From: Schmidtea nova
Lineage: Eukaryota
NCBI GenBank assembly: GCA_044892505.1
Contig: CM097883.1
Span: 257,238,001-257,302,000 of the forward strand
DNA: 64,000 bases
Direction: 5' to 3'
Shown one piece after another: positions 36,153 through 62,114 of this stretch. The number at the start of each line of letters is the position of its first letter. Within the stretch, counting starts at the first letter, position 1. The position numbers and the translations under genes were made by a program. The notes under the pieces are model-generated. The model was not told where the DNA came from. It was given only the letters and a program-made list of their open reading frames with translations, and searched no databases.

Positions 36153-36737
36153 CTATTCAAACTCCAGGCTAATCTCCTGGATTAACTCTGCTTCGGTTAA
36201 GGAGTTCAGGTGGTGGATTTGTTCGTCCAGGCGCCTTGCAAATTCTCGGCGACGACGACGCTGTCGCGATCCCATTCGATGTTTTCGAAGCTGTGGGTTT
36301 ATGACCGGTGCTGACGCTATTGTTCTCGGGGGATCACTGGGAAAAATAGGCAAATCTTCCGTTGTAAGAGTGGGTGCCATGATGATTTCCTCTTCCGTCC
36401 CGCAAGCGACATCTTGGTGAGTGCATTGTATCCAGCGCTGAGCCGTGATCGGCCGGATTAGCGCTCGTAATTCGGAGTCGATGTAACTTCTTGTTACTGC
36501 GTTCAGGCAATTTCGGAGTTCTCGCTGGACGGCATCTAATTCCAATTTGGTTGTAGCCAATGCTTCCTGCACTCGCTCGAGTTTTTTCGACTGGTCCTTC
36601 ATCTGTTCGGGCGAGAACCACTTCGCTTTCAATTCATCATTGGCGACCGTGAGTCGCTTGATCTGTCGCTGCTGGTCCCTCAGCTTTCTCTCTTGAATTT
36701 GTCCCATGATTTTCTTCGAATTTTCTGAAGTCGGCAT
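36153..36737 (-). CDS. LTR-encoded 194-aa protein (coiled coil, Arg-rich RQRRRRREF); 3' LTR copy
   Basis: ATG-initiated ORF in a locally less AT-rich block, CAG 5 nt upstream, AATAAA (plus-strand tttatt 36106-36111) about 40 nt after the stop. No recognised family. Confidence 0.6.
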   Translation of the reverse strand: MPTSENSKKIMGQIQERKLRDQQRQIKRLTVANDELKAKWFSPEQMKDQSKKLERVQEALATTKLELDAVQRELRNCLNAVTRSYIDSELRALIRPITAQRWIQCTHQDVACGTEEEIIMAPTLTTEDLPIFPSDPPRTIASAPVINPQLRKHRMGSRQRRRRREFARRLDEQIHHLNSLTEAELIQEISLEFE

Positions 36738-37053
36738 GTTGTCTGAAGATTATAACGATAAATTCACTGGAGGGCCTATCAACAATGTTATTTTATTTAA
36801 ACAACTATTATTATTATTAAACGAGATGTATATTAATGTTTTTAATTGTTGAGTTCTCTACAAAATTATTTAACTATCTAATCATTGAAGACTCAAAAGG
36901 TTTATTGAACTAATTTTATATTAATAAATGAATTTCCTAATGGCTATAACAACTACAATACTAAATCTACATGACAACACTATTAACAAAACGAACATTT
37001 CAGAATTCTTTAAAACATTTATTTAATTTAAAAACAGGCGGCCATTGATTCAG

Positions 37054-37530
37054 CTATTCATCCTCGATCATTTTTCCTCGATACGAAAATACCGAGCGGA
37101 TCTGCAAATTTGTATGGATTCCTGTGTTATTGGACGAGGCCTGCTGGAAACGGATTCTCTCAGCTTCTCGGAGGGGTCGGATGGCTGTATTGAACTTGAA
37201 CCCCAATTCCTTGAAGGTAGAGGCTGGAATGAACCCCCAATAAATGACACATCTCGGGAATCCACCTTTGTCCAACATCATGATGAACCAGGCGGCGTGC
37301 CATGATTCGTATTCCTCGTCTGGGATGATTGGCCAACTAGCGCATCCCCGGTACCATACGTGATGCCGTGGATGGTCCCATACTGTAAATGGACAGGCGG
37401 TTTCGAGCTCTCGGCGCCATGCCCACATCTTTTGATGGATTTGCTGTAAAATCTCGAAAGGAGCCGGCTTTAATGGGCTAACTCGGGCTCGTTCTTGTCG
37501 TTTTTTGATAGTGTATCTATGCTTAGCCAT
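37054..37530 (-). CDS. LTR-encoded 158-aa Trp-rich protein; 3' LTR copy
   Basis: ATG-initiated ORF in a locally less AT-rich block with AT-rich flanks. No recognised family. Confidence 0.55.
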   Translation of the reverse strand: MAKHRYTIKKRQERARVSPLKPAPFEILQQIHQKMWAWRRELETACPFTVWDHPRHHVWYRGCASWPIIPDEEYESWHAAWFIMMLDKGGFPRCVIYWGFIPASTFKELGFKFNTAIRPLREAERIRFQQASSNNTGIHTNLQIRSVFSYRGKMIEDE

Positions 37531-39071
37531 GATTCCAAAACGATGCTGAATTTTATAATAGTTACAATTTACATCAATAATTAATCATAGTAAATGTTAT
37601 CTCTCATCGTGATTCCTTTATTATTTGCCTTCCCCTTAGACCTTAGCTGAAATCAAGAAAAAACTGTTGTTTGTTACAGTATGCATTACTCTCGTATCTA
37701 CTTAGCTTTATCGGTTTATGATCAATTTGCTAGACGAAAAAATGGTGATTTGTCTGCTTGGAGTTTCAAAATATTGGTATTTCAAAACGGAAGCTCTCTC
37801 CCGTCATGTATCCCTAGCTTATTCGAAAAACGCTCTTTTGTACCAAACGCGGTCGACATAATTTTCCTAAGGTTTATTAGACGTTTATTAAACAGCTGCG
37901 CTATGGTGAGGGTGAAAAATTGTGCCTCCTCCCGGTTAACAACTTCTTTCATATCTTTAAGCTTTATCAAAAAATTCTCGTCCCCTCTGTAGCTAAAATG
38001 ATCAGAAAATAATTTTCCGGATTTGTTGGGTGTCCCATGTGCAAGTCTCAACCACTACTGATAAAATTATGCTTTACTATTTATTACTTTACCGTGTGTG
38101 GAGCCCTCGAGCACCACGCCACGGACGGACACCTTGGGAACCTAAAGCTCCCAACGGCGCAAAATTAATATGATCATTATATATTTTAATGTTGAGTCCA
38201 ATCACAATAACGTTTAATTCATATAACAAATTTCAACACATGAATGCATAAACACATAAATAATTAGATCAATAGATAAATGACAAAGCAAATGACACAA
38301 TCATGAATAAAATAATACAGAAACCAAAATACCTAATTCGTCTGGGTTTGCTTCGATCGGTTCGTCTAGAATTCAAAGTCTATTTGATTAGTGAGCTAAA
38401 TTTTACACTCTCAACTGACGTTGTAAGATTAGGTATTAAGTCTGTTTTATCCAAAGTCTGATCAGTATTTATACTGATCAGTCTGATCTAGACTGACCAA
38501 TCGGATTTGGCCGATTTCATGGTGGGTTTTAATTATTGTTTTTGATTCTAATTAATTTTTATTTTTTAGATTGTATTCTTCCTTGGAGGTCCGGGTTTCA
38601 AAAACAATTATTCAATAACAAGTACTTTTATTTGGTTTTAATTATTATTATTTGTATTTTATTTGTTTTTAGATGTCTCCTGGGCCCGTTAATATCTGTA
38701 AATTCATTTATTTTTATTTATAGCTTGTACTTAGTTATTCTATATTTTTACTATATTATTCCTTTCTTTTAATAAATAAATATTCCCCTTTTTACCTTAT
38801 TTTTCTCTTTTTTGTTTTAATTAATCTACTTTTATTTCATTTTTTTCTCTATTTGGCTGGCCCAACATCACTCGGGGACCCCTAAAATTGCGTCCCGCAA
38901 TTAATTATACATTTACACCTATATCATCATACATAAAAATTAAGCAGATAAATGTCAATTTACATATACACAAAGAATCACGTAAGGTGATAGATTTTAT
39001 ACGTAAGCACAAAGTCATATTATTGTTAAATGTAAGTGGATCATACATAAAGTGAATGTAATATATCAGTT

Positions 39072-39644
39072 TTACACAAGCTCTTTGATTTCATGATTGG
39101 TATTGGATTGGATAGGGGTTCTTTCGCTGATTGTTCGTAGTTCGTAGTGGCTTTGGATTCGGTTTAGGTGTTTTCTCATTCGCTTTTGGGTTCTGATGTC
39201 TTGTATTGTTGTTCGATTCAGGATGACATGTTTTTGTTTTAAGATCTTCACTCGGTATGATGTTATGAGGATTGTGATCGCGATAATGGTCACGCTGAGT
39301 GCAAGGATTATTATAATTGCGATGATCCATTTTTCTTGATATTCTATCTCTGCTTGGGCTAAGCTTTTTATGGGTTCTCGACCTTCTTTTAGGGTTTTTC
39401 TGATTGTTTTCAATTTGATTCGATGTTCATATAGGACCTGTTGAAATTTTTCATCGTTTGGGTTGTCTGATGTTATCTGTTGAAGTTGGGTGATTTCTTG
39501 TGTTGCTTCGCTGATTAGTTTATCTAGTTCTTGATAGGTTTTCTCGGGTAGGGCTCGTAGCTCCTTCTCTGTGAGTTGAAGATCTTCTCTTTGTAGGGTG
39601 ATTGTTATTAGGTATAGGAATATCGGTATTCGGAGCTTTTTCAT
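39072..39644 (-). CDS. 190-aa putative type I membrane protein (signal peptide, helical ectodomain, TM, basic tail)
   Basis: MKKLRIPIFLYLITITLQ N-terminus, WIIAIIIILALSVTIIAITILITSY hydrophobic span, heptad-like middle. Confidence 0.7.
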   Translation of the reverse strand: MKKLRIPIFLYLITITLQREDLQLTEKELRALPEKTYQELDKLISEATQEITQLQQITSDNPNDEKFQQVLYEHRIKLKTIRKTLKEGREPIKSLAQAEIEYQEKWIIAIIIILALSVTIIAITILITSYRVKILKQKHVILNRTTIQDIRTQKRMRKHLNRIQSHYELRTISERTPIQSNTNHEIKELV

Positions 39645-39726
39645 ACTGTTTTCTTTACAGGTAGGTCAATACAATTTGATACTACATTTCATACAATTAT
39701 TTACAAAAATATATTTTCCGCTTTAT

Positions 39727-40788
39727 TTACACAATCGTCTCGTTTGGTTCGTAGAAACCTTCGTCCTGAGGTTCTACCTGGTTCGTGGGGAGTGGTATCC
39801 AAACAACCCTGCTCCTCCACATTTCGACTTCATCTCGATACATGTGAGATATCTGGATCTCCTCGTCCAGCAAATATTCTAGGTAATTTGCTTGTTCTGT
39901 TAATGTTTCTATTTGCTTCTCTAATTCGATTACTTTTGTCTTTTGTTCGTCTTCTTTCATCATTTTTGTTACGGCTGCCGTTGTACTTGTTTCTTTGGGT
40001 ATTGCTAGTACTGTTACTCGTTTCTGTTTCAATTCTTCGTTTTCTTTCATCAAATTCGTTAAATTTTCCTCATAACTTTGCTTCGCTTCCTTTAACCTTT
40101 CTCTGGTTCTTTTTAGCTCTATTTTCTTCTGGGTAATCACTCCTTGATAACCATTTATATCTCTCTTCATCTCTTCTTCTTTCTGATTCCATATTCCGGT
40201 GAGCATAGATTTCAGTTGTTCTTGATTAGCTAGTTCTTCTCCCATTCTTTGAACTTGATAGGTTAGTCCTTTAATTTTCTTTGCTTGTTCGCGGATAAAT
40301 TGCTGTCTTTTTGTATTCCATCTTTTATTTAACACTTCCTGGTTGATTTTTTGCTCTAACTCGTCTTTTAGTTCATCGATCTCTTTATATAACTTCCAAT
40401 CATCACTATAAGCTGTCCTTTCTATTATTTCTCTAGCTTTTTCGTAAGATTCTTTCGCTTCTTTCTTCCAGTATCTTGCTTGTTCTGTAATCGAATACAT
40501 CTTGTGTTCAGCTTCCATCTGCTGTCTGTCTCTTTCCTCTCGTCGCTCTTTCATCATTCTCTGGTAATATTCCTTTTGTTGTTGTAGCATTTTGTATACT
40601 TCTTCTATTTTTTCTCGACTTCTTTGACTTGATCTTTCCGCTTCTTTTAATAATTCGGCTTGTCTCTCTATCTCCTCTTGCTTTCCATAATATGCATTGA
40701 CCCATATTTCAATCTGTTCTAGATGATCGCTAATCGCTTCTGTTTGATGCATCGTAATTTCCTGTAAGCATACTTCGATATTTCCCAT
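39727..40788 (-). CDS. 353-aa coiled-coil protein of element B
   Basis: Long ATG-initiated E/K/Q/R-rich ORF with heptad character; no recognised domain. Confidence 0.75.
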   Translation of the reverse strand: MGNIEVCLQEITMHQTEAISDHLEQIEIWVNAYYGKQEEIERQAELLKEAERSSQRSREKIEEVYKMLQQQKEYYQRMMKERREERDRQQMEAEHKMYSITEQARYWKKEAKESYEKAREIIERTAYSDDWKLYKEIDELKDELEQKINQEVLNKRWNTKRQQFIREQAKKIKGLTYQVQRMGEELANQEQLKSMLTGIWNQKEEEMKRDINGYQGVITQKKIELKRTRERLKEAKQSYEENLTNLMKENEELKQKRVTVLAIPKETSTTAAVTKMMKEDEQKTKVIELEKQIETLTEQANYLEYLLDEEIQISHMYRDEVEMWRSRVVWIPLPTNQVEPQDEGFYEPNETIV

Positions 40789-40909
40789 TGCTATAATTTC
40801 AAAAAAAAAATTTTTTAATCGGTTTATATATCAGTTATTTTTTGTTTATATAATAATTTTTGGGTATTTAACTGTACATATTATTTACACGATCACTTCT
40901 CTTGTTACG

Positions 40910-42286
40910 TCAACCATTCTTTCTATCCGCTTTCTCATTCCTTTCCATTTCTATGTATAGGGTGTCTGCATGTAATCGTTCCCATAGGCTTTCTTTCGTT
41001 ATAAACATTGGTTCTCCCGCTGCTAATCCACATTCTGTGGTTGGTTTCTCGCTCGTACTCGCATGTTTCTCTGTCTCAAAGAATTTTTCTACTGGTTTTG
41101 TTACACTTCTGATTCTAATGATGACTCCTACTTTCAAGGGCCATTCTACTAGGTCGTCGTATTCTCCTTTACATAGCGAGAAAAATATTGACACATGTGT
41201 TCCTCGTCCTCTTCCGTCTCCATTTGGGTATAGCTTCAATCTCACTTTAGCTCCGTTTCTCCATAAATAAAATGGTGGGCTTATTACTGCTGTTTTCGTC
41301 ATATTTCTGGCCTCTGTTAATTTGTTTCTAAAATCTGTCACTTTCCACACATATGGTGCGATTGGTAACTTTTCCTCGGTATCCTGGGTGAGTTTGTTGT
41401 ACTGGATTTTCATTCCTTTAGCCAATTCTTCGATAGCTTTTATCTTTTCCTCCATCTTTTCTCGTGTTAGTTCGAATTGCTCTCTGGTTTCCAACAGTAG
41501 GTTTACCATTATCTTGTGTGACTCTATTTCTCTTTCTAATTTTTTGATTGTTTGTTCGGTTTCTTTTGTTGCTTCGTTTGTCATTTCCGCATGCTTTAGC
41601 AATGCTTCCTCCAGATGTTGTTTCATGGTTTTTTGCGTTCTTTTCTCCATACATCTCTGTTTGTTATAAGGGCATTCCCTTGGTTTCTCCGTGCACACTT
41701 TCCAATGTTCTTGTAATTTTACTTCTGCCGTTATCTCGCATTCGTTTGAACATATTCCTACATATTGTCTACATACTTTCTCCTCTTTTACATTCAGGTG
41801 TTCTTCTTCGATCTTTCTCCTCGTTTCTCGAGTTCCACAATATTCGCATAGACTTTCCTCTTCTTTACATTCATCTTTGTGCTGCTCTTTATTCTTTATA
41901 GTTATTTTTTGTTGGCATTTGTTACATTCGGTTCTCTTCTCCTCGCAGTTCTCCAGATGGTTCTCGAGATCGCGTATTTGTCCTTGCCATATACATGGTT
42001 GATTTATACATTCGGTTTTCGTGTTCATGATTTCTCTCTGAGTTGCTCTATCTGGTCCGGTTTCTTCGAATTTTATTTGTCCTTCTTTGCATTCTGGACA
42101 TTCTGGTGGTCTTTTCATACTTAACTCGTGTATGCATTTGGTACATACTCTGCATCCGCATAGGGTTTGTCTTGGTTTCAATATTATGTTTTTACAATTT
42201 ACACAAGTGAGTCTCTGACTCCATTTCCTGTTCTCGGCTCTCAAAATTTCGATTATCCGCTCTTCGGCTTTTCCTTCTGTATTCAT
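40910..42286 (-). CDS. traf: TRAF-family protein (RING, TRAF zinc fingers, coiled coil, MATH/TRAF-C), 458 aa, intronless
   Basis: RING CVNC..KPRQTLCGCRVCTKC..ECPEC; TRAF-type zinc fingers (HLENCEEKRTECNKC, HWKVCTEKPRECPY); MATH hallmarks YVWKVTDF, SPPFY, LKLYPNGDGRGRGTHVSIFF, GEYDDLVEWP. Confidence 0.93.
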   Translation of the reverse strand: MNTEGKAEERIIEILRAENRKWSQRLTCVNCKNIILKPRQTLCGCRVCTKCIHELSMKRPPECPECKEGQIKFEETGPDRATQREIMNTKTECINQPCIWQGQIRDLENHLENCEEKRTECNKCQQKITIKNKEQHKDECKEEESLCEYCGTRETRRKIEEEHLNVKEEKVCRQYVGICSNECEITAEVKLQEHWKVCTEKPRECPYNKQRCMEKRTQKTMKQHLEEALLKHAEMTNEATKETEQTIKKLEREIESHKIMVNLLLETREQFELTREKMEEKIKAIEELAKGMKIQYNKLTQDTEEKLPIAPYVWKVTDFRNKLTEARNMTKTAVISPPFYLWRNGAKVRLKLYPNGDGRGRGTHVSIFFSLCKGEYDDLVEWPLKVGVIIRIRSVTKPVEKFFETEKHASTSEKPTTECGLAAGEPMFITKESLWERLHADTLYIEMERNEKADRKNG

Positions 42287-42377
42287 TCTACAATGATATA
42301 TACACTTGATTTGTTATCTATTTTTTGATTTTTCTTGTTTTTGTTTTTACATATTTACAATTTTTCGCTTTATTTAT

Positions 42378-42734
42378 CTACGGCTCGTTTGTTGAATCTG
42401 GTTCTGGGTCATTTTCTGATCTGTTTATTGCCCAATTTGTCCATCCATCCTCTGCTTCTTCTGTCTCTCCCATTGTTAAACGGTCTATCTCTATTGCTTG
42501 TCTCTGATTTATGTCGCTCATCACTTGATTCTCTCTGGTAAGTTGCGTTATCAATCTCTGTTGCTCCTCGATTCTGTGGAGTTGTTCAAAACTATTATTA
42601 TAACTTTCGGATAACAAATTCTGTTTCTCAATTAACTGATTTTGTAGTGAGTTGATTGTTCGTATTAACATGTCACACTGGGCTTTCCATCGCATAGCCA
42701 TAGTAGTTTCTGCTATTTCTTCCTGTTCGTTCAT
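42378..42734 (-). CDS. 118-aa coiled-coil protein with acidic tail
   Basis: ATG-initiated, heptad pattern, same strand and spacing as neighbouring accessory ORFs. Confidence 0.6.
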   Translation of the reverse strand: MNEQEEIAETTMAMRWKAQCDMLIRTINSLQNQLIEKQNLLSESYNNSFEQLHRIEEQQRLITQLTRENQVMSDINQRQAIEIDRLTMGETEEAEDGWTNWAINRSENDPEPDSTNEP

Positions 42735-42859
42735 TTTCTAAATTATATACATTAATCGTTTTCTCGATTTCTCTTTTTATATTTTTATAATATCGATACC
42801 CATACTATTACGGTAATGCATTGTTATTTACACTATTATTTACAGTCATATCCCGCCTC

Positions 42860-45800
42860 CTATATCACCATCACTGTCTTTCCTTCGTATCGCTCTTCAT
42901 CTTCTATTTGTCTCCAAAATTCTTTACCTTTCGTCCTCCTTTGGAATTCTTTATGTACTTCTTCCGGTAATTCTATACTGTAGTTCATAATCTTTATATC
43001 TGGCCAATGTGTTATTGGTTTCTTGTTGAATACATCATATATCCATATTATTAATAATACTGTTATTACTGGAATAGTTGCTGCTAGTATTCCTAGACCA
43101 ATTAGTTCTCTAACTTGTTTGTTTACGTCCATCTTCGTAATTTCACTCTGGTTAATCATTGGTCCATATTGTCCCTTTAGTTTATTTAGTAGTTGTTCTC
43201 GTTCTTGTTGTTTTCTTTTAACTTCTTTAATTACTTCTTCCGGCGTCCATCTTGCGTAAGGGTCTATTACTATTTGTTCCGCGTCCATTTGTTTCGTTGT
43301 CTGACTTAATTCTTTAAATTCGAGTTTTCTCACTTTCCCTTTGGACGTTGAGTTTACCGGTGTGTAGTACGTTTCGCATTTTTCCTGCTGATTTCCTAAT
43401 ATGTCCGTCTTTTCTACCGCACATATCTCGTATTCTCTATTAAATTTCAGATTTTTGATACTCATTTCTTCTTTTCCTTTTACGTTTTCGCAGTATCGTG
43501 GCTGTCTTTCTTTTTGTTCCTGGACTACTGCCCAACATATTTCTAACGTTTTATTGTCTATTCTCCATAGTATAAGAGTTGCTGTAGTATTCTTTTCGGT
43601 TTTTATTTGTATTTCTTGGTTTTTCTGTTGTCCATTAGGTTTAAAAGTAGTGGTATACCTCGTTTTTCCTTTGTTCCGTTGCCTTCTGCTTTTTCGCGTT
43701 GTCTTTCCAATTCTTGTTCTGGTGGGTGTTTTATATATTTTGCATTCCAGTTCATTTACTGTTATTTTGTCGCTCTTCCTGATCAGGCATATTTCGTACG
43801 TTTGATTACTTTCTAACCCTTCTATCTGTATTGTGGTTGTTCCTCTGTTTGTTCGACATTGCGGCGGTGTATTCTGGTTTGTTTTCTTTTCCTGCTTCTT
43901 CCAGCATACGCCTTTGACGTCCGGTTCTATTCCGGTTAACTCTAACATTATAGTTGTTCTCCGTTTGGTGCGTTTATTTCTTCTTCCTCGTCGTATGAAC
44001 TTCATTGTTTCCCCAGGTTGAAATGTTTTACAAATCGTCGTTCCTTTCTTGTGTCTTTCTTTTTCTAGTAAACATAGTTCATACGTCCTGTCTGCTTTTA
44101 CTTCTGATATCTTGGTTACTTTATTTGTTTTCCTTTTCCGACTCGTCTTTATTTCGCTTACGCCAATTTCTTCGTTGCTTCTGGCCCAACACTTTGGGTT
44201 GGTGTTTTGGGTGTCGTTCATCTCTGTTACTGCCATTGTGTCAATGTCTATCCCTTCTTCTAACCGTTTTAACATTGTTAATATGAGTGCTAAACATAGT
44301 AATTCTGCTTGGTAGGTCACTCTTTCAGTTTCATTTGTGGTTACTCTTACTTCGGGCCTGTCTATGGTAATTTGTATAGTTGGCGTTGTTCGTCTGTCTA
44401 TTGTCTGATGTTTCTTGTTTTTTGTTCCTTGTGTCTCTGTTCTTCCACACTTTCTTACGACATAGTCTCCTTTGGATGACTGCTGTACTGTTATGGTTAC
44501 TTTGGGTGTTAGGTAATTTGCACATGCAATTGTCTTATGTGATCTCGGATCCTTTGGTTTCCGAACGGTGCACATTCTGTACCAAGTATCTAGCTCTAAG
44601 TCATCGATCTCTATGATTTCTTGCTCATATTCTGAGATCCTGCAATCCATTGGACTATTTTGTCCCGATATTTTGTCCTTTTTTGACCAACATACTCGTT
44701 CGATTCCTTTTGCGTTTCCAATTTGTATTGTCGCTTTTTCTTCACATATCATTCCTTGAGTTGGACTAATTAAGGTCATGATTACCGTTAGTAATAATAG
44801 TTCTGGTTTAAAGAATGGGTTTATTGTTTGTTTGTAGCCTGTTCTTTTTACTTCGTTTTTATTTTTATAGTTGTTGTTTCTTTGTTTCCCAAATTCATTG
44901 TTCTTATCATTTTTCTCTGTGTCCCTTCCTTTCTCTTCACTGTCCTCTTTATCTGATAACTTATGATCCTCTGGATTTTCTCGAGTACTATCGTCGTCGT
45001 TTCCTGTATTGTCACCTCCCCTTTGGTCGTTGAACATGTCGTCCTCGACATTAATTGTTTCTATCATTTTTTCATACGTTATGGTTGTGAGTATACTTGC
45101 TTCGTATTCTTGTGTTTCTGCTTGCTTAGGTATTTCCTTATCGGTTAATTTACAATCTAGAATCTCTTTCTTGGCTTTTATCCAATTATTAAGGTACGTT
45201 TTCATTAGTTCTTTCCATTTGTCCGTACGTTCTGTTTCCTTTGGGTTGTTTGTGAATCGTAAATCTTTTCTTCTCATGAAGATATCTATTATCTTTGGCC
45301 ATTTGTTTATTATTAATGCACACTTTATATACAAATTTTGGCCTTGTTCCATGCACTCGTTGATCCTGAATGCTGGTTCATTGGTGTTTGGGTTCATCCA
45401 ATTGAGTATTGCTTCAGTTAGTTCAGCGTTATGCATCATGGAATGTACGCTAGCTTTTTTAACTGTCCTTGTAAGGTATTCTATTTCCTCCTGATTTGTG
45501 ATTGTTTTTATGAAATTTATCACCTCCCAATTGTGCGCTAACAACGCTACGTCTAGTATTGAGCTGTCTTTGTTAGTTCTTCCCATGAGTCCTGCGCCTG
45601 CTTCGTACAGTTCCTGTAACACTCGGGTTTTTGTGTTCGCTCTTGCTGCGAATATCATGAGGGTGTCTCCCTTTTTATCTTTCATGTTCATGTCACTTCC
45701 GCAATCTTGCATCAACCGTGCAATTTCGACTACCCTCCTATTTTTTCCTGCTCGTAAGGCTCTATGTATTGGCAATACTCCATTCTTTGTTAATAAGAAA

Positions 45801-54800: not shown

Positions 54801-57800
54801 TGGATGGTTTGGTGATTATCCCATATACCAATTTTATATAGCCGTCTTTCATCGTGATCCCATAATACATGTTCGTTGTATTTCATGATTATGTCATCTT
54901 CCCATTCTTCTTCTGGTTCTCTTTGTAATAGTGTCTCGTTGATGACATTTACTAATTCTTTTATGGTACAATCTGCTACCACTTCAATTTCTTTGGTATC
55001 CTCATTAGGTAACTCTACTGCAATTTTCAGATCTGTTATTTTCCCTTGTCTGAACATTGCTTTTCCCATTTTTGCAATTACTTTTCCGTATGAGATCTGT
55101 GACCATCTCGTGTGACTTGTGTCACGTATGCATTCGATACATCGTTTCAACTTTTCGTATTCGCTTCTCATTAACTCCTTTCTATGTTTTTTGATTTGTG
55201 GGATGATTTGTTCTATCATGGAATTTAGATTTCCTCGTAAGATTCGTCCTTTCTCATATTCTAACCGTGGTTTTATCTTCCTCTCGAAACACATATTTGC
55301 TTCTTTTGCTACTTCTTGTAGGTTCTCTTCTCTCTTATCATCGCATATCGATAATGTTGTCACCTCTCCTGGCCATATGCCTGTTTCTATCAAATGCGTC
55401 CTTTTCTTCACTAGTCCATTCTGTGAATAGAGGAATTTGTTTTTATATGAACTCCCTAATCTGTCTTCCACCCATTGATAAATATCTTCCGTGAGTGGAG
55501 TTTTGATCCAAATCCTTGGCAAACATGTTTTTATCTCTATTAGGATTATATATTCATGGAGTGGTTCTTTTAATAATTTTCCTACGTATTGGCTTAGTGT
55601 TTCTACTTCCCGGCCTGGTAACCACTCTTTATAGTTCATTTGTAATATTGCTCTCATGAATTTTCTATAGTGTTTCTTGTCAATGAATTCCTCATTATAT
55701 ATTACTTCTAGCGTATTATCTAATAATTTCTGGATCTCGTCTTCTTTTACTTGAATAGTTTCTGGTGTCTTTACTACTTCTATCTTTTTGTCTTCAATTT
55801 CCGGTTCGTCTAGCATGTCCCCTGCTAGACTACTGACGTCACTATCCTCTTCATCGTCTGAAAAATTCTTTGCCTGGCCTCTCAACATGTTAATGTGTTT
55901 TATCTGGTTAATTTCACTTGGTGTATTTTCCGTTGGTCTTGTTTCACTTTTAATAGCTTTTTGTGTTGATTCACTCTTGTCGTCTACTACTTCGACCTTT
56001 CTCAATTTTCGTTCTAACTCGTCTATTTCTCCCAACCGTCTTCGTATCATTTTCCCTTTAAATATTCGACTGATTCGTGTTTCGTGACGCACTGGCGATG
56101 GAATTCCTTCTGGTTCTATTTCCTTGATTACCATCACATTTCTTTTTGTCTCTACTACTCCCATGTTTTCCCATGTATCCGTTAGTTTCAATTTTACTTC
56201 TGGTGCACCTTCTATTTTTAGGAATGCTTCTCTGGGCAGTTTCGTTACTCCTGGAGCCATTTCATTCACTTTATTGAACAATATTTCTACTTCTTCCTTT
56301 ATGTTATATTGGAATCGAAACACGTGCTTGTTTGGCAAAATTACCATCATTCCTCTTTTCCCGAGTTTCCTTTTCTCTTCTTGGTTCCCTTCTTTTTCTA
56401 CTTCCTTTTCTGTTTCTTTTTCTGCTTCTTCATCTTCTTGTATTATCTCTTTTCGGCCTTCGTTGTTGGTTGGATTTGGGTTTGTTGGATTTATTTCTGG
56501 TACAGTCTCTTTCTCGTGGGTATTTGTTTGATTGGTTGCTCTCATCATATTAATTCTTAGAGGTTGTCGTTCTCTTTCTTGCTGTTTTTGTTCCTCTTCT
56601 CTTTGTATTCTTGCCCATTCCTGAGCATGTCGTGCTTGACTTTCCCGATTCAATCGTTCGTTTTCGCTTTCTATTTTTCTCATCATATTGATTTGTTGTT
56701 GACCTGTTTGCGGATTTCCTCTGGTTGTATTGTTTATCAGCTCCGTCAATCTTTGGACCTCTTGCATTAAATGTATCTCTTTAGTGGTATTTTTATTTTG
56801 GTTATTATTATTACTATTTGGTTGGTTTCCGTATTCCGGTTGGTTTCCATTATTTGGCTGATTTCCATAATTCTGTCGGTTTCCACCAGTTGGTTGGTTG
56901 CCATAGTTTTGTCGGTTTCCGGTATTCTGCCAGTTTCCTCGTTGATTGCTTCTTTGTCCGCAATTTCTTGATAGGTGTCCAGGCCGTCCACAATTAAAAC
57001 AGGTTATTGTGTAACATCTGCTCTCTGAATGCCCTTTTACTCCACATTTTCCACAATTCAAGTTCTGATAACATTCTTGTTGCCAATGTCCCAATTTCCC
57101 ACATGTTTTGCATTGTTTCGTTGGTCCTTGGGGGTTGTAATTGTTTTGATTTCCGTAATTTGATACTTTATTCCCTTCATTCCTTCGTTGCGGTGGTGGT
57201 CGGTTTAATTGTTGTGAATTTGGAATGTGGTTATTCAGGTTCACTTCTTGTTCGTTTTGTGCTGTATCCATAGCTAAATAGATTCTACCATCATTTCCTA
57301 TCATGTGTAGTTCAAATCTATTAGCTGTTTCTAGTGCTTGGTCGATGGTTTTACAACCTTGACATCCAACTTGCGCTCTTATGTCGGGTCTTCTTAATCC
57401 TCCCACAAAGATAGCTGCCATTAACTCCTCATTTATTGGGCTGTCTTGATTAAAGATCAACTTTGCTAACTTTTTCAATTCGCTTGCATATACCGCATTC
57501 GATTCATTTATCTTTTGTTTCCTCATTGAGAATTCCGTGAATGCCTCATTCAATACTTTATTTATTCCAAAGGTTTGTTGGAAAAAGTCCTTTATCGCTG
57601 ACCAACTTGTAGGTGGATTAGTTCCATTCTTTGCTTCCAAATATAGATCTAATGCGCTATCTTTCAAATATAGCTGAATTCTGCTTACAGTTGTTTCTGG
57701 TTTCCACTTGCATACTTCCACGAATATGCCAAATTCCTTTAAGAAAGTTTCTAATTTACTCGCATCTCCATTAAACGGTTCTCCGGAAAATTTGTCTTTT

Positions 57801-58249
57801 ATCTCTTCTCTTGGTTCGCTCATTTCAATTCCGCTGTCTGTAGTTATTTTACTTTCGTTTCCTCTTGTTTCTAGTTCACTGTTAGGTTCGTCACTTGAAT
57901 TTCGGTCGATCTCAGTTTCCTTTGCTGATTCGTTATCTGATGCTTTACTATCGTTATCGGTATCGTCACTTTCTGTTTCTTGTTCTACTTCGTCTTCTAT
58001 TTCTTCTATATAATCGTTGTTGGTTTTGTCGACTTCTATTTCACTTATTGGGTTTCTCTCGGGTTCTGCTTGATTTTCTTTGTTGCTTGAACTGTTGCTT
58101 GTTACTGATAATTTATCGTTTTCGATAATCGACTTTTGTATTATTATCTGCCTTGCTTTACTTCCTTTTGGGCCTTTCTGATTATTATTCTTGGTAGCTT
58201 TATTCTTTTCTGCTGGTTTTATTATGACACTCTTTTCTCCTTTTCTCAA
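42860..58249 (-). CDS. gag-pol: 5129-aa polyprotein: Gag (3 CCHC), 2 UBL-like, AT-hook, Bcl-2-like, env-like glycoprotein, PR, dUTPase-like linker, RT, RNase H, IN, ankyrin repeats, FN3-like membrane protein
   Basis: CCHC at 56960-57113; DTG at 50393-50401; YIDD at 49175-49186; TDAS at 48731-48742; IN GGH..CLTC, AMDVIG, TDQGTNF, TNGQTERFN and GPY; ankyrin TPLMVAA-type repeats; hydrophobic spans near 52810, 51060, 44780 and 43075. Annotated start is TTG; first ATG near residue 143. Confidence 0.96.
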   Translation of the reverse strand: MRKGEKSVIIKPAEKNKATKNNNQKGPKGSKARQIIIQKSIIENDKLSVTSNSSSNKENQAEPERNPISEIEVDKTNNDYIEEIEDEVEQETESDDTDNDSKASDNESAKETEIDRNSSDEPNSELETRGNESKITTDSGIEMSEPREEIKDKFSGEPFNGDASKLETFLKEFGIFVEVCKWKPETTVSRIQLYLKDSALDLYLEAKNGTNPPTSWSAIKDFFQQTFGINKVLNEAFTEFSMRKQKINESNAVYASELKKLAKLIFNQDSPINEELMAAIFVGGLRRPDIRAQVGCQGCKTIDQALETANRFELHMIGNDGRIYLAMDTAQNEQEVNLNNHIPNSQQLNRPPPQRRNEGNKVSNYGNQNNYNPQGPTKQCKTCGKLGHWQQECYQNLNCGKCGVKGHSESRCYTITCFNCGRPGHLSRNCGQRSNQRGNWQNTGNRQNYGNQPTGGNRQNYGNQPNNGNQPEYGNQPNSNNNNQNKNTTKEIHLMQEVQRLTELINNTTRGNPQTGQQQINMMRKIESENERLNRESQARHAQEWARIQREEEQKQQERERQPLRINMMRATNQTNTHEKETVPEINPTNPNPTNNEGRKEIIQEDEEAEKETEKEVEKEGNQEEKRKLGKRGMMVILPNKHVFRFQYNIKEEVEILFNKVNEMAPGVTKLPREAFLKIEGAPEVKLKLTDTWENMGVVETKRNVMVIKEIEPEGIPSPVRHETRISRIFKGKMIRRRLGEIDELERKLRKVEVVDDKSESTQKAIKSETRPTENTPSEINQIKHINMLRGQAKNFSDDEEDSDVSSLAGDMLDEPEIEDKKIEVVKTPETIQVKEDEIQKLLDNTLEVIYNEEFIDKKHYRKFMRAILQMNYKEWLPGREVETLSQYVGKLLKEPLHEYIILIEIKTCLPRIWIKTPLTEDIYQWVEDRLGSSYKNKFLYSQNGLVKKRTHLIETGIWPGEVTTLSICDDKREENLQEVAKEANMCFERKIKPRLEYEKGRILRGNLNSMIEQIIPQIKKHRKELMRSEYEKLKRCIECIRDTSHTRWSQISYGKVIAKMGKAMFRQGKITDLKIAVELPNEDTKEIEVVADCTIKELVNVINETLLQREPEEEWEDDIIMKYNEHVLWDHDERRLYKIGIWDNHQTIHVIRMDDTPRETAKDEKRERERQKEVVHKLQQIVDIYRNWRIWPEWEDVLEELNLNRRLRTPVEKQWNERGKCWEPKAGEYEEEYGIGIEDDHKPETGRVCMVTRKAMPADLDGPETTTMWLEREKQKTEEFVEILKTNAHGKRKVVKGLADFFVVNGEDITCLRKVAKAIAEYKRVNEWCPEQLDHVIKKWRNQEFSQESPQKVHLRIVYPNQEKEEFWVGIAEKVRDIKKKLRYEPPFHLQHQGRSLDNSLEIGITPAQLDIANTLTVAAIAGQPLKLKEEKKPKGSMSTPSPMKSVRTPGTSSEQARTTPRETRERTPPEPYDVDEIFTDSDDMLEELIELTKEKDDNIFERIQELPTAIPVTNTEDEVEQEIIIEEVNEIAEEETRRANVENVQFTQEMERWLEERANEPRDVTEETGRETRLVETGTTMDKRPRGRPKMDPANVVIKSREEKRRDQWDLCLKKLNKIAVTKEKETTQTYQGEEWISKMLMEILAIIDPELKKWWRINEISERAKSLHSAIAPILPELIKEKTRSNHLDWQGTTMLIKKLTEGAETDNKYLIAMAYTIYNLLTLSRGRLKPTALERHIKNTAKIIEKEIEPYIISKGGWETFTKTNQKKNQAKNMKKKFEEILGELEKEKSGTGNGKSSLNLSSIIMMMLIWMISTDGATAFEVFDCDQMALGEKYSLRGTEQCKDATPTELKTLKKRQLYHVYQEAELIRTMVRECKVYKTRFAFYCGHRHYSAIVMPGTERESVMLQGEDCEKLFKHGEVETRDRVKIRGKTGVILQQTYYVAGAITGGEGYCQGATYPIFGVAATNLVVIDTYTVELKTYEAFFDPTTGEMKTLPMCKIESNTCQTGMSTLTYQIRGKECQLQLLKEAEFDEIQGKTFQEEEEDEAARGKILQDTVRGEKKIETRTQEKQIKMRNTPTVLITSDADIGMRFVKGKTALKCGVAMLETNYPGIFVSKQEVPSAKRKVHTNDVKLHLYMNNKMDFLFHRGQASLQKVYYDLINNDCILNREILKTKLAVAITNPDSAMPLLPLREGHFGRVVGEVMYVYICKKTNAKVATMTKLQPGQCTNELEIEYKGKVRYVQPVTRIINPISFEPNPFNCSNAYGPLYQKPDGNWVMFPSRTEVPAPREFELMQLSKGRKFKDVDVSNMGFYSAKDLEAARQNILFPARREAVLSSIVTITGGTNYQGGPNYELLLSPAHFKKATENMMKAMWGRFLIFGQMMAGILGVILIIQIIRVIITQMLACFDIYKREKKVNWKLVVGFLPFLAKTMVLHGHSKDIHRIKRLLKILAKMKGTDEEVGRKFKKIMNNEQARQQLKKERKGLWERMKGYRTQDDSSDDDDDDNEGGQVFKNQVPQYVEKNPAEMWKCYAPPPTMYQEPTPGMRQNTMQMMPMTNIYPMIPEDYRTRRCRSVDPQGDSHTIAVMSSNTGPVLTTTIEINGREIEAMIDTGANISAIDIKWIPQEQRRDIERTNVHVIACSKEVVEVAGRWWVKIKHQNTEIETYVAVIPALSVPCIIGTDLMPALFKEIVIDLGTMRLKDRTGQICAIEAKVTSSKQIIVPARREKICFVKIDPTIEGDMIFEPSKRFEKRKSLPMARGLVSANDNGEIPITVVNFDEEDKIIYENERLGKLTPMMDIEIPIKEGVKEEEPTWNIDSQLLNEDQKKQLERLLIEYKDIFAAFDLDLGTCDVTLHTIPLTDETPIALRPYKLAEAQKSVAEAEVQKMLDAEVIEPSCSPWQFPVVMVKKKDGTQRFCIDYRRLNAVTKRDTYPLPDINEMLLTLQGAAYFTSLDLKSGYWQIKMKEEDKEKTAFTIGRDLYQFRKMPFGLTNAPASFQRCMNFVTHGIKQCMVYIDDLLIYSSTFEQHIQDIRDVFVRLRQWKLKLKPSKCDWAKEKVTFLGHIVSAKGKEPDPRNIDKVKECPVPKTITQIQEFLGLCGYYRKFIKDYAGIAKPIQELVKKDVSFIWGSEQQTAFETLRDKLITAPILVHPDFKKPFLLATDASGYAAGAVLGQYDDEGKERVIGYYSRTFKKHEKNYSVTEREALAIILAIKHFKYLLWGHVICITTDHQPLVWLGQHKETSSRLMRWAMQLQEYSPDIKFKSGKANANADCMSRLTFPELTDPEVQRICIMIAEDLDFSELKKDQQEDKELRPIIEFLSSRNMDVFKDNAELKEHMRKYQHRYTIEKGWLLIRDGEKRLMCLPGNRRKEIITQYHDGKLGGHMSDKKTLNRMRQKYYWPTMDEDVKEWIKNCLTCATRKDSGKKWKNPLKPMPIPAEPMTTIAMDVIGPLPESLNGNQYILVITDYLTKFPEAFAMPDQKAKTVARILVEEICCRYGTPKQILTDQGTNFMSEILDEVTNYFRIAKLRTSPYHPQTNGQTERFNGTLIRMLSNYVSKHQTDWDEYIKLCLMAYRMSIHAATKLSPFQLMYGRECNMPIDLEYQPPLSQYMEEDDYVTKFKERMQEIWKTAELNIKFYQESYKDLHDQKKNVKTNDLKPGDWVMIETPEIIPGTVKKLQRPGKGPYEVIYKKENNVKVKLVNRPLIRPIYVNTCRCKKVPKTITTAPEERIITRSQTARMNMLRATNESTEAENNQREKRNKEIVLKAREIMGKWHVRDDILRDIQSIISDYARGLPTKPVISELLEKIPEILSLEDIGGQPALHNAIKWGEVERVKEFLKIAKETNQHLGFWNSEQETPLMVAAIYKSDKAIIDLLINADFNWTERDRENKTVLNHAIWSSNQIMLKQIIEKATWEIDELIKGDIIKEAIKIGNCKTIRKLIKWKRSENDTWVLNINEVYSEGQNTLLQFLLKFVCDQKALLTLLDRRNIIISKNKEECKFESEKEALFRKIREWCAKSLTKTITYKDISNFQDKYKTVEEEYDKLIDILNHPEKCKQFLCQKERESKRKVTPLFSAEVPYQERLDAIQDKAKELLPEFENSKHTLEILGSIVEKVHAYAEGTYNENDMMIIKREMPVTFLLTKNGVLPIHRALRAGKNRRVVEIARLMQDCGSDMNMKDKKGDTLMIFAARANTKTRVLQELYEAGAGLMGRTNKDSSILDVALLAHNWEVINFIKTITNQEEIEYLTRTVKKASVHSMMHNAELTEAILNWMNPNTNEPAFRINECMEQGQNLYIKCALIINKWPKIIDIFMRRKDLRFTNNPKETERTDKWKELMKTYLNNWIKAKKEILDCKLTDKEIPKQAETQEYEASILTTITYEKMIETINVEDDMFNDQRGGDNTGNDDDSTRENPEDHKLSDKEDSEEKGRDTEKNDKNNEFGKQRNNNYKNKNEVKRTGYKQTINPFFKPELLLLTVIMTLISPTQGMICEEKATIQIGNAKGIERVCWSKKDKISGQNSPMDCRISEYEQEIIEIDDLELDTWYRMCTVRKPKDPRSHKTIACANYLTPKVTITVQQSSKGDYVVRKCGRTETQGTKNKKHQTIDRRTTPTIQITIDRPEVRVTTNETERVTYQAELLCLALILTMLKRLEEGIDIDTMAVTEMNDTQNTNPKCWARSNEEIGVSEIKTSRKRKTNKVTKISEVKADRTYELCLLEKERHKKGTTICKTFQPGETMKFIRRGRRNKRTKRRTTIMLELTGIEPDVKGVCWKKQEKKTNQNTPPQCRTNRGTTTIQIEGLESNQTYEICLIRKSDKITVNELECKIYKTPTRTRIGKTTRKSRRQRNKGKTRYTTTFKPNGQQKNQEIQIKTEKNTTATLILWRIDNKTLEICWAVVQEQKERQPRYCENVKGKEEMSIKNLKFNREYEICAVEKTDILGNQQEKCETYYTPVNSTSKGKVRKLEFKELSQTTKQMDAEQIVIDPYARWTPEEVIKEVKRKQQEREQLLNKLKGQYGPMINQSEITKMDVNKQVRELIGLGILAATIPVITVLLIIWIYDVFNKKPITHWPDIKIMNYSIELPEEVHKEFQRRTKGKEFWRQIEDEERYEGKTVMVI

Positions 58250-58798
58250 CGGGATTACTTTTGTATACTCAATTTTCTTGTCTTATCGTGTTCCGATTCT
58301 TTTCTTCCTTAGTTGATTGGTTTGGTTTGATTGATTTATCTAAAATACAAATGTCACTTCAACGATACTCTATTGTTATCGTTGCGCTTTTATTCCCTTT
58401 TTACGGGACTTCTCATTACTGGGTTTCTATTATTTTTCCCCATTCCCAGATTCCCCTTTATTTAAGTCTATTTAAATTATCTATATACTAGTCACAATTA
58501 TCTATTTAGTCATAACAATTATCTATCGGTTATTAAAATACATCAATTATTTTTCCCGCGGTCTCCCAATTTATTTGTCGTTCGAACGCTCTAATTCCCT
58601 GAGTCATTTGACTCGATTATTATTTTTTCATCTCTTTATCTTTCTCTCTGCTAGCCTCTAATTATTAATTCTGCCGGTCTTTCCGGTCAGCTCCTATTTC
58701 TCGATTCTACTTGCATGCATTATTTTAGGTCGCATAATCAGCTTTACTCGCATTTCTCTATTATCGGTGCGCACTATTCTCATTATCGTCGACGATCA

Positions 58799-59012
58799 CA
58801 ACTCTGGGCCTATATTCCCTCTGTTGTTATTTCTTATCACTTGCAACCCTGGGCCTATATTCCCTCCGTTGCTACTCAAACGATTGTAACCCTGGGCTTA
58901 TATTCCCTCCGTTACTATCTTCCTTTAATTTTAAATAATTGCAACCCTGGGCCTATATTCCCTCCGTTGCTACTCAACAATTGTAACCCTGGGCCTATAT
59001 TCCCTCCGTTAC
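58799..59012. repeat. Five copies of an (aacc)ctgggcctatattccctccgtt motif in the element B leader
   Basis: Copies start near 58801, 58843, 58887, 58940 and 58982, with variable spacers. Confidence 0.9.
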
Positions 59013-59057
59013 TATATATCCGGATATCCCTATTGGCTCCTTTGGCCTCTAATTAAT

Positions 59058-59224
59058 ATCAATTATCTCAAATGGCTCTTATGGCCTCAAATTCATATCT
59101 CAATTATCTTAAATGGCTCTATTGGCCTTAAATTCATATCTCAATTATCTCAAATGGCTCTATTGGCCTTAAATTCATATCTCAATTATCTCAAATGGCT
59201 CTATTGGCCTTAAATCATATCTCT
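59058..59224. repeat. Four copies of a 41-bp tandem unit in the element B leader
   Basis: Unit aattatctcaaatggctctattggccttaaattcatatctc. Confidence 0.9.
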
Positions 59225-59267
59225 CAATAACGCCTAGCTAGGTCATTCAATATGGCTCTTTGGCCTC

Positions 59268-59422
59268 AACCCTTTGTTTCAAGGGACAAACCGCTGATAA
59301 CCCTTTGTTTCAAGGGACAACCTCTAATAACCCTTTGTTTCAAGGGACAAACCGCTGATAACCCTTTGTTTCAAGGGACAAATTCTAATAACCCTTTGTT
59401 TCAAGGGACAAACCGCTGATAA
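59268..59422. repeat. Five copies of an alternating 31/30-bp unit, each containing a small hairpin
   Basis: aaccctttgtttcaagggacaaaccgctgat alternates with variants ending aacctctaat or aaattctaat; ccctt-N6-aaggg stem. Confidence 0.9.
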
Positions 59423-59897
59423 CTTTTCCTTAACCGGTTAATCGTAATTCTTAACTTCGCTAGCGACTACAATTTCTCAGCTGAGTTCTCTCAATTTCAT
59501 GCGAGCTGATTATGCACCTCTTATTTTTCTCTATAATTCCTCGATTCTTTGTTTTATTACTAATTCTTTCGCTGATCAGTCATAATTCAATTTTTATTAT
59601 TTTCTCTGCGCGCATCTTACCTCCTCAGGGTTTTCCCTATTTCTCTCCCCAACCAAAATATACAAAAAGATCGCGTTGGTCTACTAATGCGGGATGTGGT
59701 GATCAATCACATCACAAAAGCTTTCCAACATTTGCGATTGGCCCCTTTCTATATACCCCGAGTGGGTTGATCAACTGGTACCTCCCAATGGGTGCTTAAC
59801 GGACTACTTGACAGTAGCTCAAAAATTAATTAACATTGTTGATTGCTCCCCTGACTTTGTCATTCGATACAATATATTAACACACTCTAAATATTTA

Positions 59898-60359
59898 TTA
59901 TAAATAAACCACAATTTTATCAGCTACAGAGAAATTGCACATGGGGCACTCATCACACTTATTCGCACAGTTTTTACAGAATCGAAAATGTCCACATGGC
60001 AAAAACATTATTTGGATTTCACTGTCTTCGCATATGTAACATTGTTTATATTGTTTTGCTGCCTCGACCCCTTGCGACATCCATCGGTTATATGTTAGAC
60101 TTAACTGCTGTTCTATATGTCGGCATCTGATATTCAACTCGGCATCCTCTAATCGTGCTTTGTACCATTTATATCGCGTATTTATATCGAGTTTATTTAC
60201 TTTCTCTATGATTTTTATTAACTCAGTTGTTTCCTCAGTTTGTGTCGTAGGTTCCTCATATTCGGATGCTCTTATTCGGGTTATTTTTTCGCAGACTGTC
60301 TCAAATGTATCGTTCTCGGTGTTGAAAAATTCTTCGATTTCTTTCAGTTTTTCCTCCAT
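59898..60359 (-). CDS. 153-aa protein with a C-terminal IAP/MDM2-type RING finger
   Basis: CYICEDSEIQIMFLPCGHFRFCKNCANKCDECPMC followed by a terminal hydrophobic KIVVYL, as in IAP-type C3HC4 RINGs. Confidence 0.85.
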   Translation of the reverse strand: MEEKLKEIEEFFNTENDTFETVCEKITRIRASEYEEPTTQTEETTELIKIIEKVNKLDINTRYKWYKARLEDAELNIRCRHIEQQLSLTYNRWMSQGVEAAKQYKQCYICEDSEIQIMFLPCGHFRFCKNCANKCDECPMCNFSVADKIVVYL

Positions 60360-60662
60360 TTCCTAGATAATTTATTTAATTACTGTGTTAATATTATTCG
60401 AAAAGTAGTACTGTGTTTCGTTTTCGACAGTTTATAGCCTCCCCCCGTGTTTCGGTAAATTGTCGTCCCGACCTGTTATTTATGAATGCATTTGTTCAAT
60501 TTATCTACTAATTTGTTTTAATTCTCTGTTTGTAATTATCTATTTCCACGCAACTCACTTTTATCTCGATTACTCTTTCGGTTACTATTTCTACTCACAA
60601 AATTCTTATTTTAAATTTCTCTGTTGTCATTGGGTTCGCATTTTCGCATAAAAACAAAGTTG

Positions 60663-60680
60663 ATCCCGGCTGAGCCCCCA
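60663..60680 (-). promoter_or_regulatory. Primer-binding site of element B (tRNA-Pro type)
   Basis: TGGGGGCTCAGCCGGGAT, 6 nt inside the 5' LTR boundary; identical to the element A PBS and spacer. Confidence 0.88.
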
Positions 60681-61213
60681 AATTTATGCTGGGATTATGG
60701 GTGGGTTTTAAGTAATTCAAATAAACAATTAATCATACTAGGGATTCCGCGCCCATAACCATACATAACATGACTACTACACGCGTATGCCCTTGACTAT
60801 TCCCTACTAGTCAAGTTGGTACTGCATACGGTGGTGGAAAAATGATGGGCAGGTGAGCTTTGTCGCCAAAACTACTCCCCATTTATCTTCCCTCGGGTTC
60901 TTGCTGCCGATAGAAGGTCTTACGCATTTACATTCTATGGATGTTCGTTTCCTACTGAATTTTATACTACATATACTTATGATCTATCACACGCTTTTCC
61001 CAATGACGCTCTCCCTCGCTGTTCTACAAGCCTACGAAAACTCTCGCTGCTAAGTAACGGTCGGTGTAGGTTTTACGATGCGATTTTTAGTTCTACGAAT
61101 TACTTATGTAGTCTTATTTTATTTAGTGAAATCCCACGATGAGAGAAAAAATTTACACAGTAATACTTTATTAAAATAATAAAGACAGGTTGTTATGTTA
61201 CATGGAGATTTTC

Positions 61214-61798
61214 CTATTCAAACTCCAGGCTAATCTCCTGGATTAACTCTGCTTCGGTTAAGGAGTTCAGGTGGTGGATTTGTTCGTCCAGGCGCCTTGC
61301 AAATTCTCGGCGACGACGACGCTGTCGCGATCCCATTCGATGTTTTCGAAGCTGTGGGTTTATGACCGGTGCTGACGCTATTGTTCTCGGGGGATCACTG
61401 GGAAAAATAGGCAAATCTTCCGTTGTAAGAGTGGGTGCCATGATGATTTCCTCTTCCGTCCCGCAAGCGACATCTTGGTGAGTGCATTGTATCCAGCGCT
61501 GAGCCGTGATCGGCCGGATTAGCGCTCGTAATTCGGAGTCGATGTAACTTCTTGTTACTGCGTTCAGGCAATTTCGGAGTTCTCGCTGGACGGCATCTAA
61601 TTCCAATTTGGTTGTAGCCAATGCTTCCTGCACTCGCTCGAGTTTTTTCGACTGGTCCTTCATCTGTTCGGGCGAGAACCACTTCGCTTTCAATTCATCA
61701 TTGGCGACCGTGAGTCGCTTGATCTGTCGCTGCTGGTCCCTCAGCTTTCTCTCTTGAATTTGTCCCATGATTTTCTTCGAATTTTCTGAAGTCGGCAT
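61214..61798 (-). CDS. LTR-encoded 194-aa protein; 5' LTR copy
   Basis: Identical translation to 36153-36737. Confidence 0.6.
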   Translation of the reverse strand: MPTSENSKKIMGQIQERKLRDQQRQIKRLTVANDELKAKWFSPEQMKDQSKKLERVQEALATTKLELDAVQRELRNCLNAVTRSYIDSELRALIRPITAQRWIQCTHQDVACGTEEEIIMAPTLTTEDLPIFPSDPPRTIASAPVINPQLRKHRMGSRQRRRRREFARRLDEQIHHLNSLTEAELIQEISLEFE

Positions 61799-62114
61799 GT
61801 TGTCTGAAGATTATAACGATAAATTCACTGGAGGGCCTATCAACAATGTTATTTTATTTAAACAACTATTATTATTATTAAACGAGATGTATATTAATGT
61901 TTTTAATTGTTGAGTTCTCTACAAAATTATTTAACTATCTAATCATTGAAGACTCAAAAGGTTTATTGAACTAATTTTATATTAATAAATGAATTTCCTA
62001 ATGGCTATAACAACTACAATACTAAATCTACATGACAACACTATTAACAAAACGAACATTTCAGAATTCTTTAAAACATTTATTTAATTTAAAAACAGGC
62101 GGCCATTGATTCAG

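Follow-up and report, generated by a model that had tools for sequence, protein, structure and literature searches.

Burro-like elements, which carry apoptosis- and ubiquitin-related cargo, are to our knowledge the largest long terminal repeat (LTR) retrotransposons described. In the Burro section of a review (PMC6431247), Burro (GYPSM1) of Schmidtea mediterranea and a Burro-like element of Dugesia tigrina have a polyprotein of ~5000 amino acids (AA) with env in frame, ankyrin repeats, MATH/TRAF and RING domains, accessory open reading frames (ORFs) and long LTRs; that section is silent on accessory-ORF expression. Burro is transcribed in Schmidtea, where PIWI knockdown increases its RNA (PMC8532177), and a partial coverage of the literature returned no report of its splicing. 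The same features recur in the element described here, which lies on the minus strand of a 64,000-nt stretch of Schmidtea nova (GenBank assembly GCA_044892505.1, contig CM097883.1, positions 257,238,001 to 257,302,000), hereafter the window. This giant LTR element runs from 63928 to 35626 (28.3 kb), is flanked on both sides by a 4-bp target duplication, and carries a RING ORF 5' of the polyprotein, four ORFs 3' of it (118, 458, 353 and 190 AA) and two ORFs in each LTR (158 and 194 AA; Table 1). It differs from Burro in that TRAF is a separate downstream ORF, rather than an upstream or fused one, that no BIR domain is matched, and that each LTR holds two genes (PMC6431247). We consider it probable that one LTR promoter-like site and an ATG-free leader ending in a splice donor, D1, serve all of these genes, with D1 cis-spliced to every acceptor and each gene becoming the first frame of its own mRNA.

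The element type is known, and its expression scheme is a variation on known splicing schemes. As in complex retroviruses, a single 5' donor would be combined with an acceptor before each gene, and two alternative acceptors of one 5' donor are seen here in DNA copies. The element departs from those viruses in its non-retroviral domain content, in its eight predicted acceptors, in having no identified Rev/Tas-like regulator, and in a Gag predicted to come from spliced RNA that has no primer site. If one donor does serve up to eight acceptors, a program like that of complex retroviruses was reached separately in an invertebrate Ty3/gypsy lineage. Among retrotransposons, gypsy env is made from a spliced subgenomic RNA; like Ty1/copia shGAG, it involves one intron and one product, unlike our element. 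For shGAG, spliceosomal splicing with early 3'-end formation sets the protein output, as we propose here, and the passage of the same source on Arabidopsis Ty3/gypsy elements reports no conserved splicing (PMC5580714). In foamy virus the donor precedes the poly(A) signal within the LTR (PMC3694450), and the same order is found in both LTRs here.

The evidence that carries the proposal comes from genomic copies in which a donor has been joined to an acceptor. One of 20 copies checked for conservation (L004) lacks 798 nt of its LTR, a gap found unsought that extends from a donor-like site ~110 nt past the TATA box (63394/63393) to an AG that precedes the ORF158 ATG by 4 nt. Searching the whole genome for the D1 donor followed by any base but G returned two matches, both LTRs of the L004 element (L051/L052), and the same search with the leader of a second LTR type returned four, two of which are joined LTRs (L061/L062). 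The other two (L063/L064) were rejected as a joined copy, being a point change at the donor. In the second joined copy, which has a different leader variant from the first, the donor is fused to the CAG that lies 5 nt ahead of the ORF194 ATG, with ORF158 skipped. A preliminary description of this DNA had proposed that YAG triplets just before the accessory ATGs are acceptors, used by cis-splicing from a common leader or by spliced-leader (SL) trans-splicing; the right end of the second join is exactly the ORF194 site that it had named (36743/61804). For the two LTR genes the cis-splicing part of that interpretation is supported by two joined copies, one of them at a named site. For ORF158 the CAG that it had placed 15 nt before the ATG is present, but the joined copy uses a different AG, which occurs in 2 of 19 unjoined copies and is missing from the copy in the window. 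A search from the acceptor side at ORF194 found the CAG in 115 unjoined LTRs; two LTRs, those of the second joined element, differ at the -3 base.

Both joins are GT-AG and present in both LTRs of their element. Each of the two elements is bounded by a 4-bp target duplication and has two LTRs that are almost the same (2029/2030 positions compared in one element, 1746/1748 in the other), the second retains its primer site, and in it the sequence common to both sides of the join is AG only, as against TTAG in the first. There are 183 AG dinucleotides between the donor and the LTR end, and a chance hit on those immediately ahead of both ATGs has, by a simple count, a probability of about 1 in 10^4; since join 2 was searched from the donor, its right end is a free observation and its left end is not. 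None of four other aligned deletion junctions (L040, L109, L138, L141) is GT-AG, the short copies chosen by LTR spacing are ordinary deletions, and the rearranged copies L053 and L055 contain no join at the predicted sites. Reverse transcription of spliced genomic RNA would be expected to leave both LTRs without the GT-AG segment, as is seen here. Precedent for intron-less proviral copies exists in spliced endogenous copies of mouse mammary tumour virus (MMTV; rem intron), and endogenous MMTV and HERV-H copies that lost exactly one viral intron likewise record a splice (PMC11998498), whereas the introns here lie within the LTR and were lost from both LTRs. We regard the DNA copies as strong evidence that, inside the LTR, cis-splicing uses alternative acceptors: the joins probably originated from spliced RNA, in which D1 would be joined to ORF158 or, with ORF158 skipped, to ORF194.

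On the donor side, transcription would begin past the TATA box, near 63505, as conservation of the motifs suggests. A CCAAT/TATA pair, a short leader and a GT with T-rich sequence are present in every LTR type seen, and the D1 donor word is kept in LTR variants with a different leader. Eight leader variants hold one ATG in 1132 nt against 19.4 expected, and the intron behind them holds 14 in 783 nt; the leader count overstates certainty, given related variants and a choice of donors by motif in the other families. By a weak analogy with foamy virus, the donor might also help genomic RNA to read through the poly(A) signals of the 5' LTR. The leader exon itself (~110-255 nt) differs in sequence among LTR types (L012-L019, L056), with AGACTTT words repeated, while promoter and donor are constant. 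The TATA box sits at the centre of a short inverted repeat (GATCAGTA...TACTGATC; window 63522-63541). The hairpins predicted in the first intron are a candidate export or packaging signal; GC-rich blocks occupy the corresponding intron place in other LTR types, and Rfam gave no match within window 57800-64000.

All seven minus-strand YAG contexts of the preliminary description are present as it gave them. The G of the AG lies (gap to the ATG in brackets) at 60363 for RING (3), 42738 for ORF118 (3), 42288 for TRAF (1), 40791 for ORF353 (2), 39646 for ORF190 (1), 36743 for ORF194 (5) and 37546 for ORF158 (15), and the spacers between the 3' ORFs measure 125, 91, 121 and 82 nt, again as reported. 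The enrichment of YAG close to the ATG, a check that had been suggested at the time, is significant against three nulls. A gap of at most 5 nt is found at 6/7 accessory ATGs, compared with 82/546 of the other minus-strand ATGs of the element (Fisher p=8.6e-5) and 966/5004 non-coding positions (binomial p=3.0e-4), and when the 80 nt upstream were dinucleotide-shuffled 20000 times, six was never reached (mean 0.72). Shuffling understates chance, the 80-nt windows being AG-poor, and the two empirical nulls are fairer. The 5-nt limit was the earlier reader's choice, made after seeing the data; other cut-offs gave 5/7 at 3 nt or less (p=3e-4) and 7/7 at 15 nt or less (p=2e-3).

A conserved acceptor-like site, overlooked in the preliminary description, precedes the polyprotein as well: a T-rich TAG at 58340. 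Downstream of it there are no ATGs until that of Gag, versus 11 in an equal length upstream. The same step is found in a gag-only element (0 versus 4) and in four copies of a sister family whose TRAF is 78% identical (0, 0, 1 and 0 versus 13, 13, 12 and 11). The gag-only element, which has no long LTR gene, still has a TATA box (9858), a donor-like site (9749) and an acceptor of the polyprotein type. These patterns suggest a splice from D1 to 58340 that passes over the primer site and gives a polyprotein mRNA devoid of it. Internal mRNAs of this kind would be translated and not copied to DNA, and the RNA bearing the primer site would be the genome. If the Gag-Env-Pol RNA is indeed spliced in this way, translation and packaging take place on separate RNAs, and deleted and gag-only copies such as those observed would be favoured. 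The stretch between acceptor and Gag (window 57824-58282, minus strand) is itself open in the Gag frame for 153 ATG-free codons and is uninterrupted in the sister family too, where its indels are of 3n length; it begins soon after a shared stop, contains AAA-ATT-G as a good non-AUG start context, and has no Pfam match. It possibly encodes a longer form of Gag with a non-AUG start. An SL AUG as the Gag start was rejected, as a stop follows after 18 codons in 13/13 copies scored (30 fetched). The gag-only relative (window 612-10503; L057 7150-8868) shares the primer site; its LTRs measure 1719 nt, its leader contains a 56-nt tandem array, and it is present in at least 40 copies. Its family was rejected as a third accessory-gene set because it is gag-only.

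For the genes between the LTRs (RING, polyprotein, four 3' genes) we infer that D1 reaches six internal acceptors, over distances of 3 to 24 kb. The sister family has a YAG 0-3 nt before 7/7 genes in L060/L105 and before 5/6 in L053, among them a CAG with a gap of 3 at RING, a gap of 3 at TRAF, and at ORF190 a TAG with a gap of 2 in L060; ORF190 of L053 has a GAG with a gap of 0. Conservation in sister families, which had been proposed as a check, is seen before every gene of L060/L105, and is weak for the internal spacers: those of the two families are 55-88% identical, with the last AG kept in 4/5 alignments and other AGs in 11/20. The sister LTR genes count for more, because their upstream sequence differs. 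No join of D1 to an internal site was found at TRAF or RING, which is uninformative either way, since such a join removes the primer site and no DNA copy is expected. Four read sets from one study, not recorded as RNA, cover the intron and spacers continuously over 35623-44200 with no joint at D1 or the acceptors; this pattern fits DNA and gives no evidence for or against splicing.

The joins seen lie inside the LTR only, which would suit an arrangement in which the LTR alone is spliced, the internal AGs are incidental, and the internal genes are expressed from short promoters of their own or by reinitiation. TATA-like words occur in 3/5 spacers, and reinitiation is possible over short spacers. 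Against this, there is no TATA-like word in the ORF353-ORF190 spacer or in the stretch before RING, two of the words lie just 15-18 nt before the ATG, a YAG lies within 3 nt of the ATG at all five internal accessory genes, and the ATG step at 58340 together with the gag-only relative indicates a splice across the primer site. We think this arrangement very unlikely.

The compact 3' region raises another possibility, namely that only the LTR genes and Gag-Env-Pol are cis-spliced and the 3' genes form an operon that is cleaved and polyadenylated in the spacers, with the host SL added at each AG. Nematode operons have the same short-spacer layout, with a 3'-end motif and an acceptor. SL-resolved operons of nematodes and flatworms resemble the element in their short AT-rich spacers, 3'-end-like motif and acceptor, and here too the spacers (82-125 nt) contain a fixed motif past the stop and an AG before the next ATG. 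They differ from it in that a cis donor is used upstream here, with a reach that we suppose to extend past the LTR. SL trans-splicing exists in planarians and is known for Schmidtea (PMC10899757), and once D1 has been used upstream the 3' acceptors are left without a known donor. A cis donor, however, outcompetes the SL for an acceptor (PMC4558846, citing Hastings 2005). Flatworm SLs end in AUG (PMC9851317, PMC7653826), and this AUG would be in frame at 2/5 internal accessory sites (3/5 in the sister family), would open a short upstream frame at the polyprotein site, and would precede genes that each have an ATG of their own; the frame test is weak, because in S. mansoni the SL AUG is in frame in just 28% of cases (PMC9851317). 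Such a mixed system, in which one mobile element would use both host splicing systems for eight genes, seems to us unlikely. The SL branch of the preliminary interpretation gained no support, given the cis donor upstream and gaps with no clear frame bias for the SL AUG; its cis-splicing branch would apply to RING and the four 3' genes by extension from the LTR genes.

At the 3' ends, AATAAA follows 5/8 stops (p=0.05 versus non-coding sequence) and only 2/4 of those that precede 3' spacers, which may also speak against an operon; TGTAAATA follows 4/4 of the latter. Several genes would probably end at their own poly(A) signal, a pattern that hints at mRNAs monocistronic at the 3' end, though weakly. 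The TGTAAATA motif is found after 4/8 ORFs (p=1.4e-3 versus non-coding sequence), and the same four ORFs have it in the sister family. It could belong to a 3'-end signal, act as a Pumilio site or be a weak donor. AATAAA is the main planarian poly(A) signal, and the first of these options is less favoured because planarian poly(A) sites are described without UGUA enrichment (PMC5068929). As a donor, TGTAAATA would read T/GTAAAT and turn the spacers into mini-introns or the 3' genes into cassette exons trimmed past the stop. Its distance from the stop is fixed at 18-24 nt in both families, GTAAAT is a donor-like word in one sister LTR, and the resulting introns of 59-106 nt would be similar to short host introns, as read by eye in L070. 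A T before GT and an A at +5 make a poor donor context, however, the motif also matches the Pumilio element, and spacer splices keep the primer site, so that DNA copies are expected; none was found for the ORF118-TRAF spacer and none among L001-L050. We hold this explanation to be highly improbable. The host gene in L070 is calpain-like, with short AT-rich introns (by eye) whose donors and weak acceptors are similar to the sites of the element.

Splicing of all genes from D1 thus remains the reading that we prefer, and several observations weigh against it. The scheme as proposed draws on DNA copies. Microhomology deletions occur in the element family, and join 1 has the 4-nt shared TTAG and a presumed parent AG allele, one that only 2/19 unjoined copies carry. 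The leader ATG count is partly circular on account of the motif-picked donors, and the pyrimidine tracts at the acceptor-like sites are weak. ORF190 of L053 has no nearby YAG, AG conservation in the internal spacers is weak alone because other AGs are kept too, and in the sister family another in-frame ATG lies a few codons 5' of the start of RING and of the second LTR gene. Acceptor-side searches for joined copies, which among the internal accessory genes covered TRAF and RING but not ORF118, ORF353 or ORF190, returned two matches at TRAF, both unrelated DNA, and four at RING, none of them joined (two point variants retaining TAG and two unrelated). One sister donor gave no match. The D1a donor joined to an exon starting with G likewise gave no match.

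By its domain content and order, the element is a Burro-like giant Ty3/gypsy element, placed outside the named families Burro-1 to -4 of Schmidtea mediterranea. It falls in the size class of ~25-30 kb, with long LTRs, a target duplication, a polyprotein in the range of ~4900-5100 AA, the order protease, reverse transcriptase (RT), RNase H and integrase, ankyrin repeats, a MATH/TRAF domain and env in a mononegavirus-like position. The env-type fusion protein is in frame between Gag and protease: residues 1935-2276 match Monjiviricetes_fusion (Pfam, E=1.5e-67) and the protease begins at residue 2461. Among the ORFs scanned with Pfam there was no BIR domain, the 153-AA ORF giving a RING match only, and it is for want of a BIR match that we did not assign the element to Burro-1 to -4. 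Pfam gave no match to BCL2-like or dUTPase-like domains and the segment before env had no PDB match, where the review had used HHpred (PMC6431247). A TRAF search found three distant matches, 23-25% identical, in a comparison that included no named Burro sequence. The family is young and common, with at least 92 scored TRAF matches in the 1.25-Gb genome. The primer-binding-site-like stretch presumably resembles a tRNA-Pro site. At G000:C1:325813245-325851990, three LTRs stand in a row, 13.6 and 25.2 kb apart, in a tandem or nested arrangement.

Table 1. Features of the Burro-like element in the S. nova window (window coordinates)
Feature	Position	Strand	Remarks
5' LTR	60687..63928	-	3242 nt, TG...CA; identical to 3' LTR
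3' LTR	35626..38867	-	3242 nt; same sequence as 5' LTR
CCAAT-type box and TATA box, predicted promoter	63527..63563 (3' LTR copy near 38466-38502)	-	motif pair also present in LTR variants and in sister families
Predicted leader exon, ATG-free	63394..63505	-	5' end assumed ~30 nt past TATA motif
Splice donor D1 (AG/GTATTT), cut 63394/63393	63388..63393 (3' LTR copy 38327-38332)	-	left end of both joined copies
Two predicted GC-rich stem-loops, first intron	63153..63221 (also in 3' LTR)	-	85-nt fold, -36.7 kcal/mol, without shuffle control
ORF158, in LTR	62115..62609 (3' LTR copy 37054-37548)	-	CAG 15 nt before ATG
ORF194, in LTR	61214..61806 (3' LTR copy 36153-36745)	-	acceptor CAG 5 nt before ATG
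Predicted primer-binding-site-like stretch	60663..60680	-	just inside 5' LTR; by position, shared between families
RING ORF, 153 AA	59898..60365	-	zf-C3HC4_3 E=8.6e-12; TAG 3 nt before ATG
Predicted polyprotein acceptor (G at 58340) and 516-nt ATG-free stretch to Gag ATG	57824..58342	-	ATG step shared by three families
Polyprotein, 4987 AA	42860..57823	-	Pfam, in order: Gag zinc knuckle, fusion glycoprotein, protease, RT, RNase H, integrase, ankyrin
ORF118	42378..42740	-	TAG 3 nt before ATG
TRAF/MATH ORF, 458 AA	40910..42290	-	MATH_2 E=1.9e-21; TAG 1 nt before ATG
ORF353	39727..40793	-	TAG 2 nt before ATG; no Pfam match
ORF190	39072..39648	-	CAG 1 nt before ATG; weakest site of the set
TGTAAATA motif	39698..42844 (starts 42844, 42359, 40889, 39705)	-	18-24 nt past stops of polyprotein, ORF118, TRAF, ORF353

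Within the element, an LTR end block (60730-60930 / 35670-35870) is common to all element families seen and has no Rfam match; summed contig depth there is ~28,000, compared with a few hundred to 4,000 elsewhere. Three short tandem arrays with units of ~30, 41 and 45 nt lie between RING and the polyprotein acceptor (window 58780-59450). Elsewhere in the window, a smaller gag-pol LTR element with 122-nt repeats (20452-25765) sits inside a repeat that bears a C4 zinc-finger fragment and is also found in L057 and L102. Two related intronless ORFs resembling seven-transmembrane receptors (18461-19369 and 29360-30283) are 72-78% alike in DNA. In the wider genome, L058-L059 and L124-L125 are gene clusters of one 1300-1400-AA ORF and several ORFs of 130-400 AA, which we take to resemble a Polinton/Maverick-type element.

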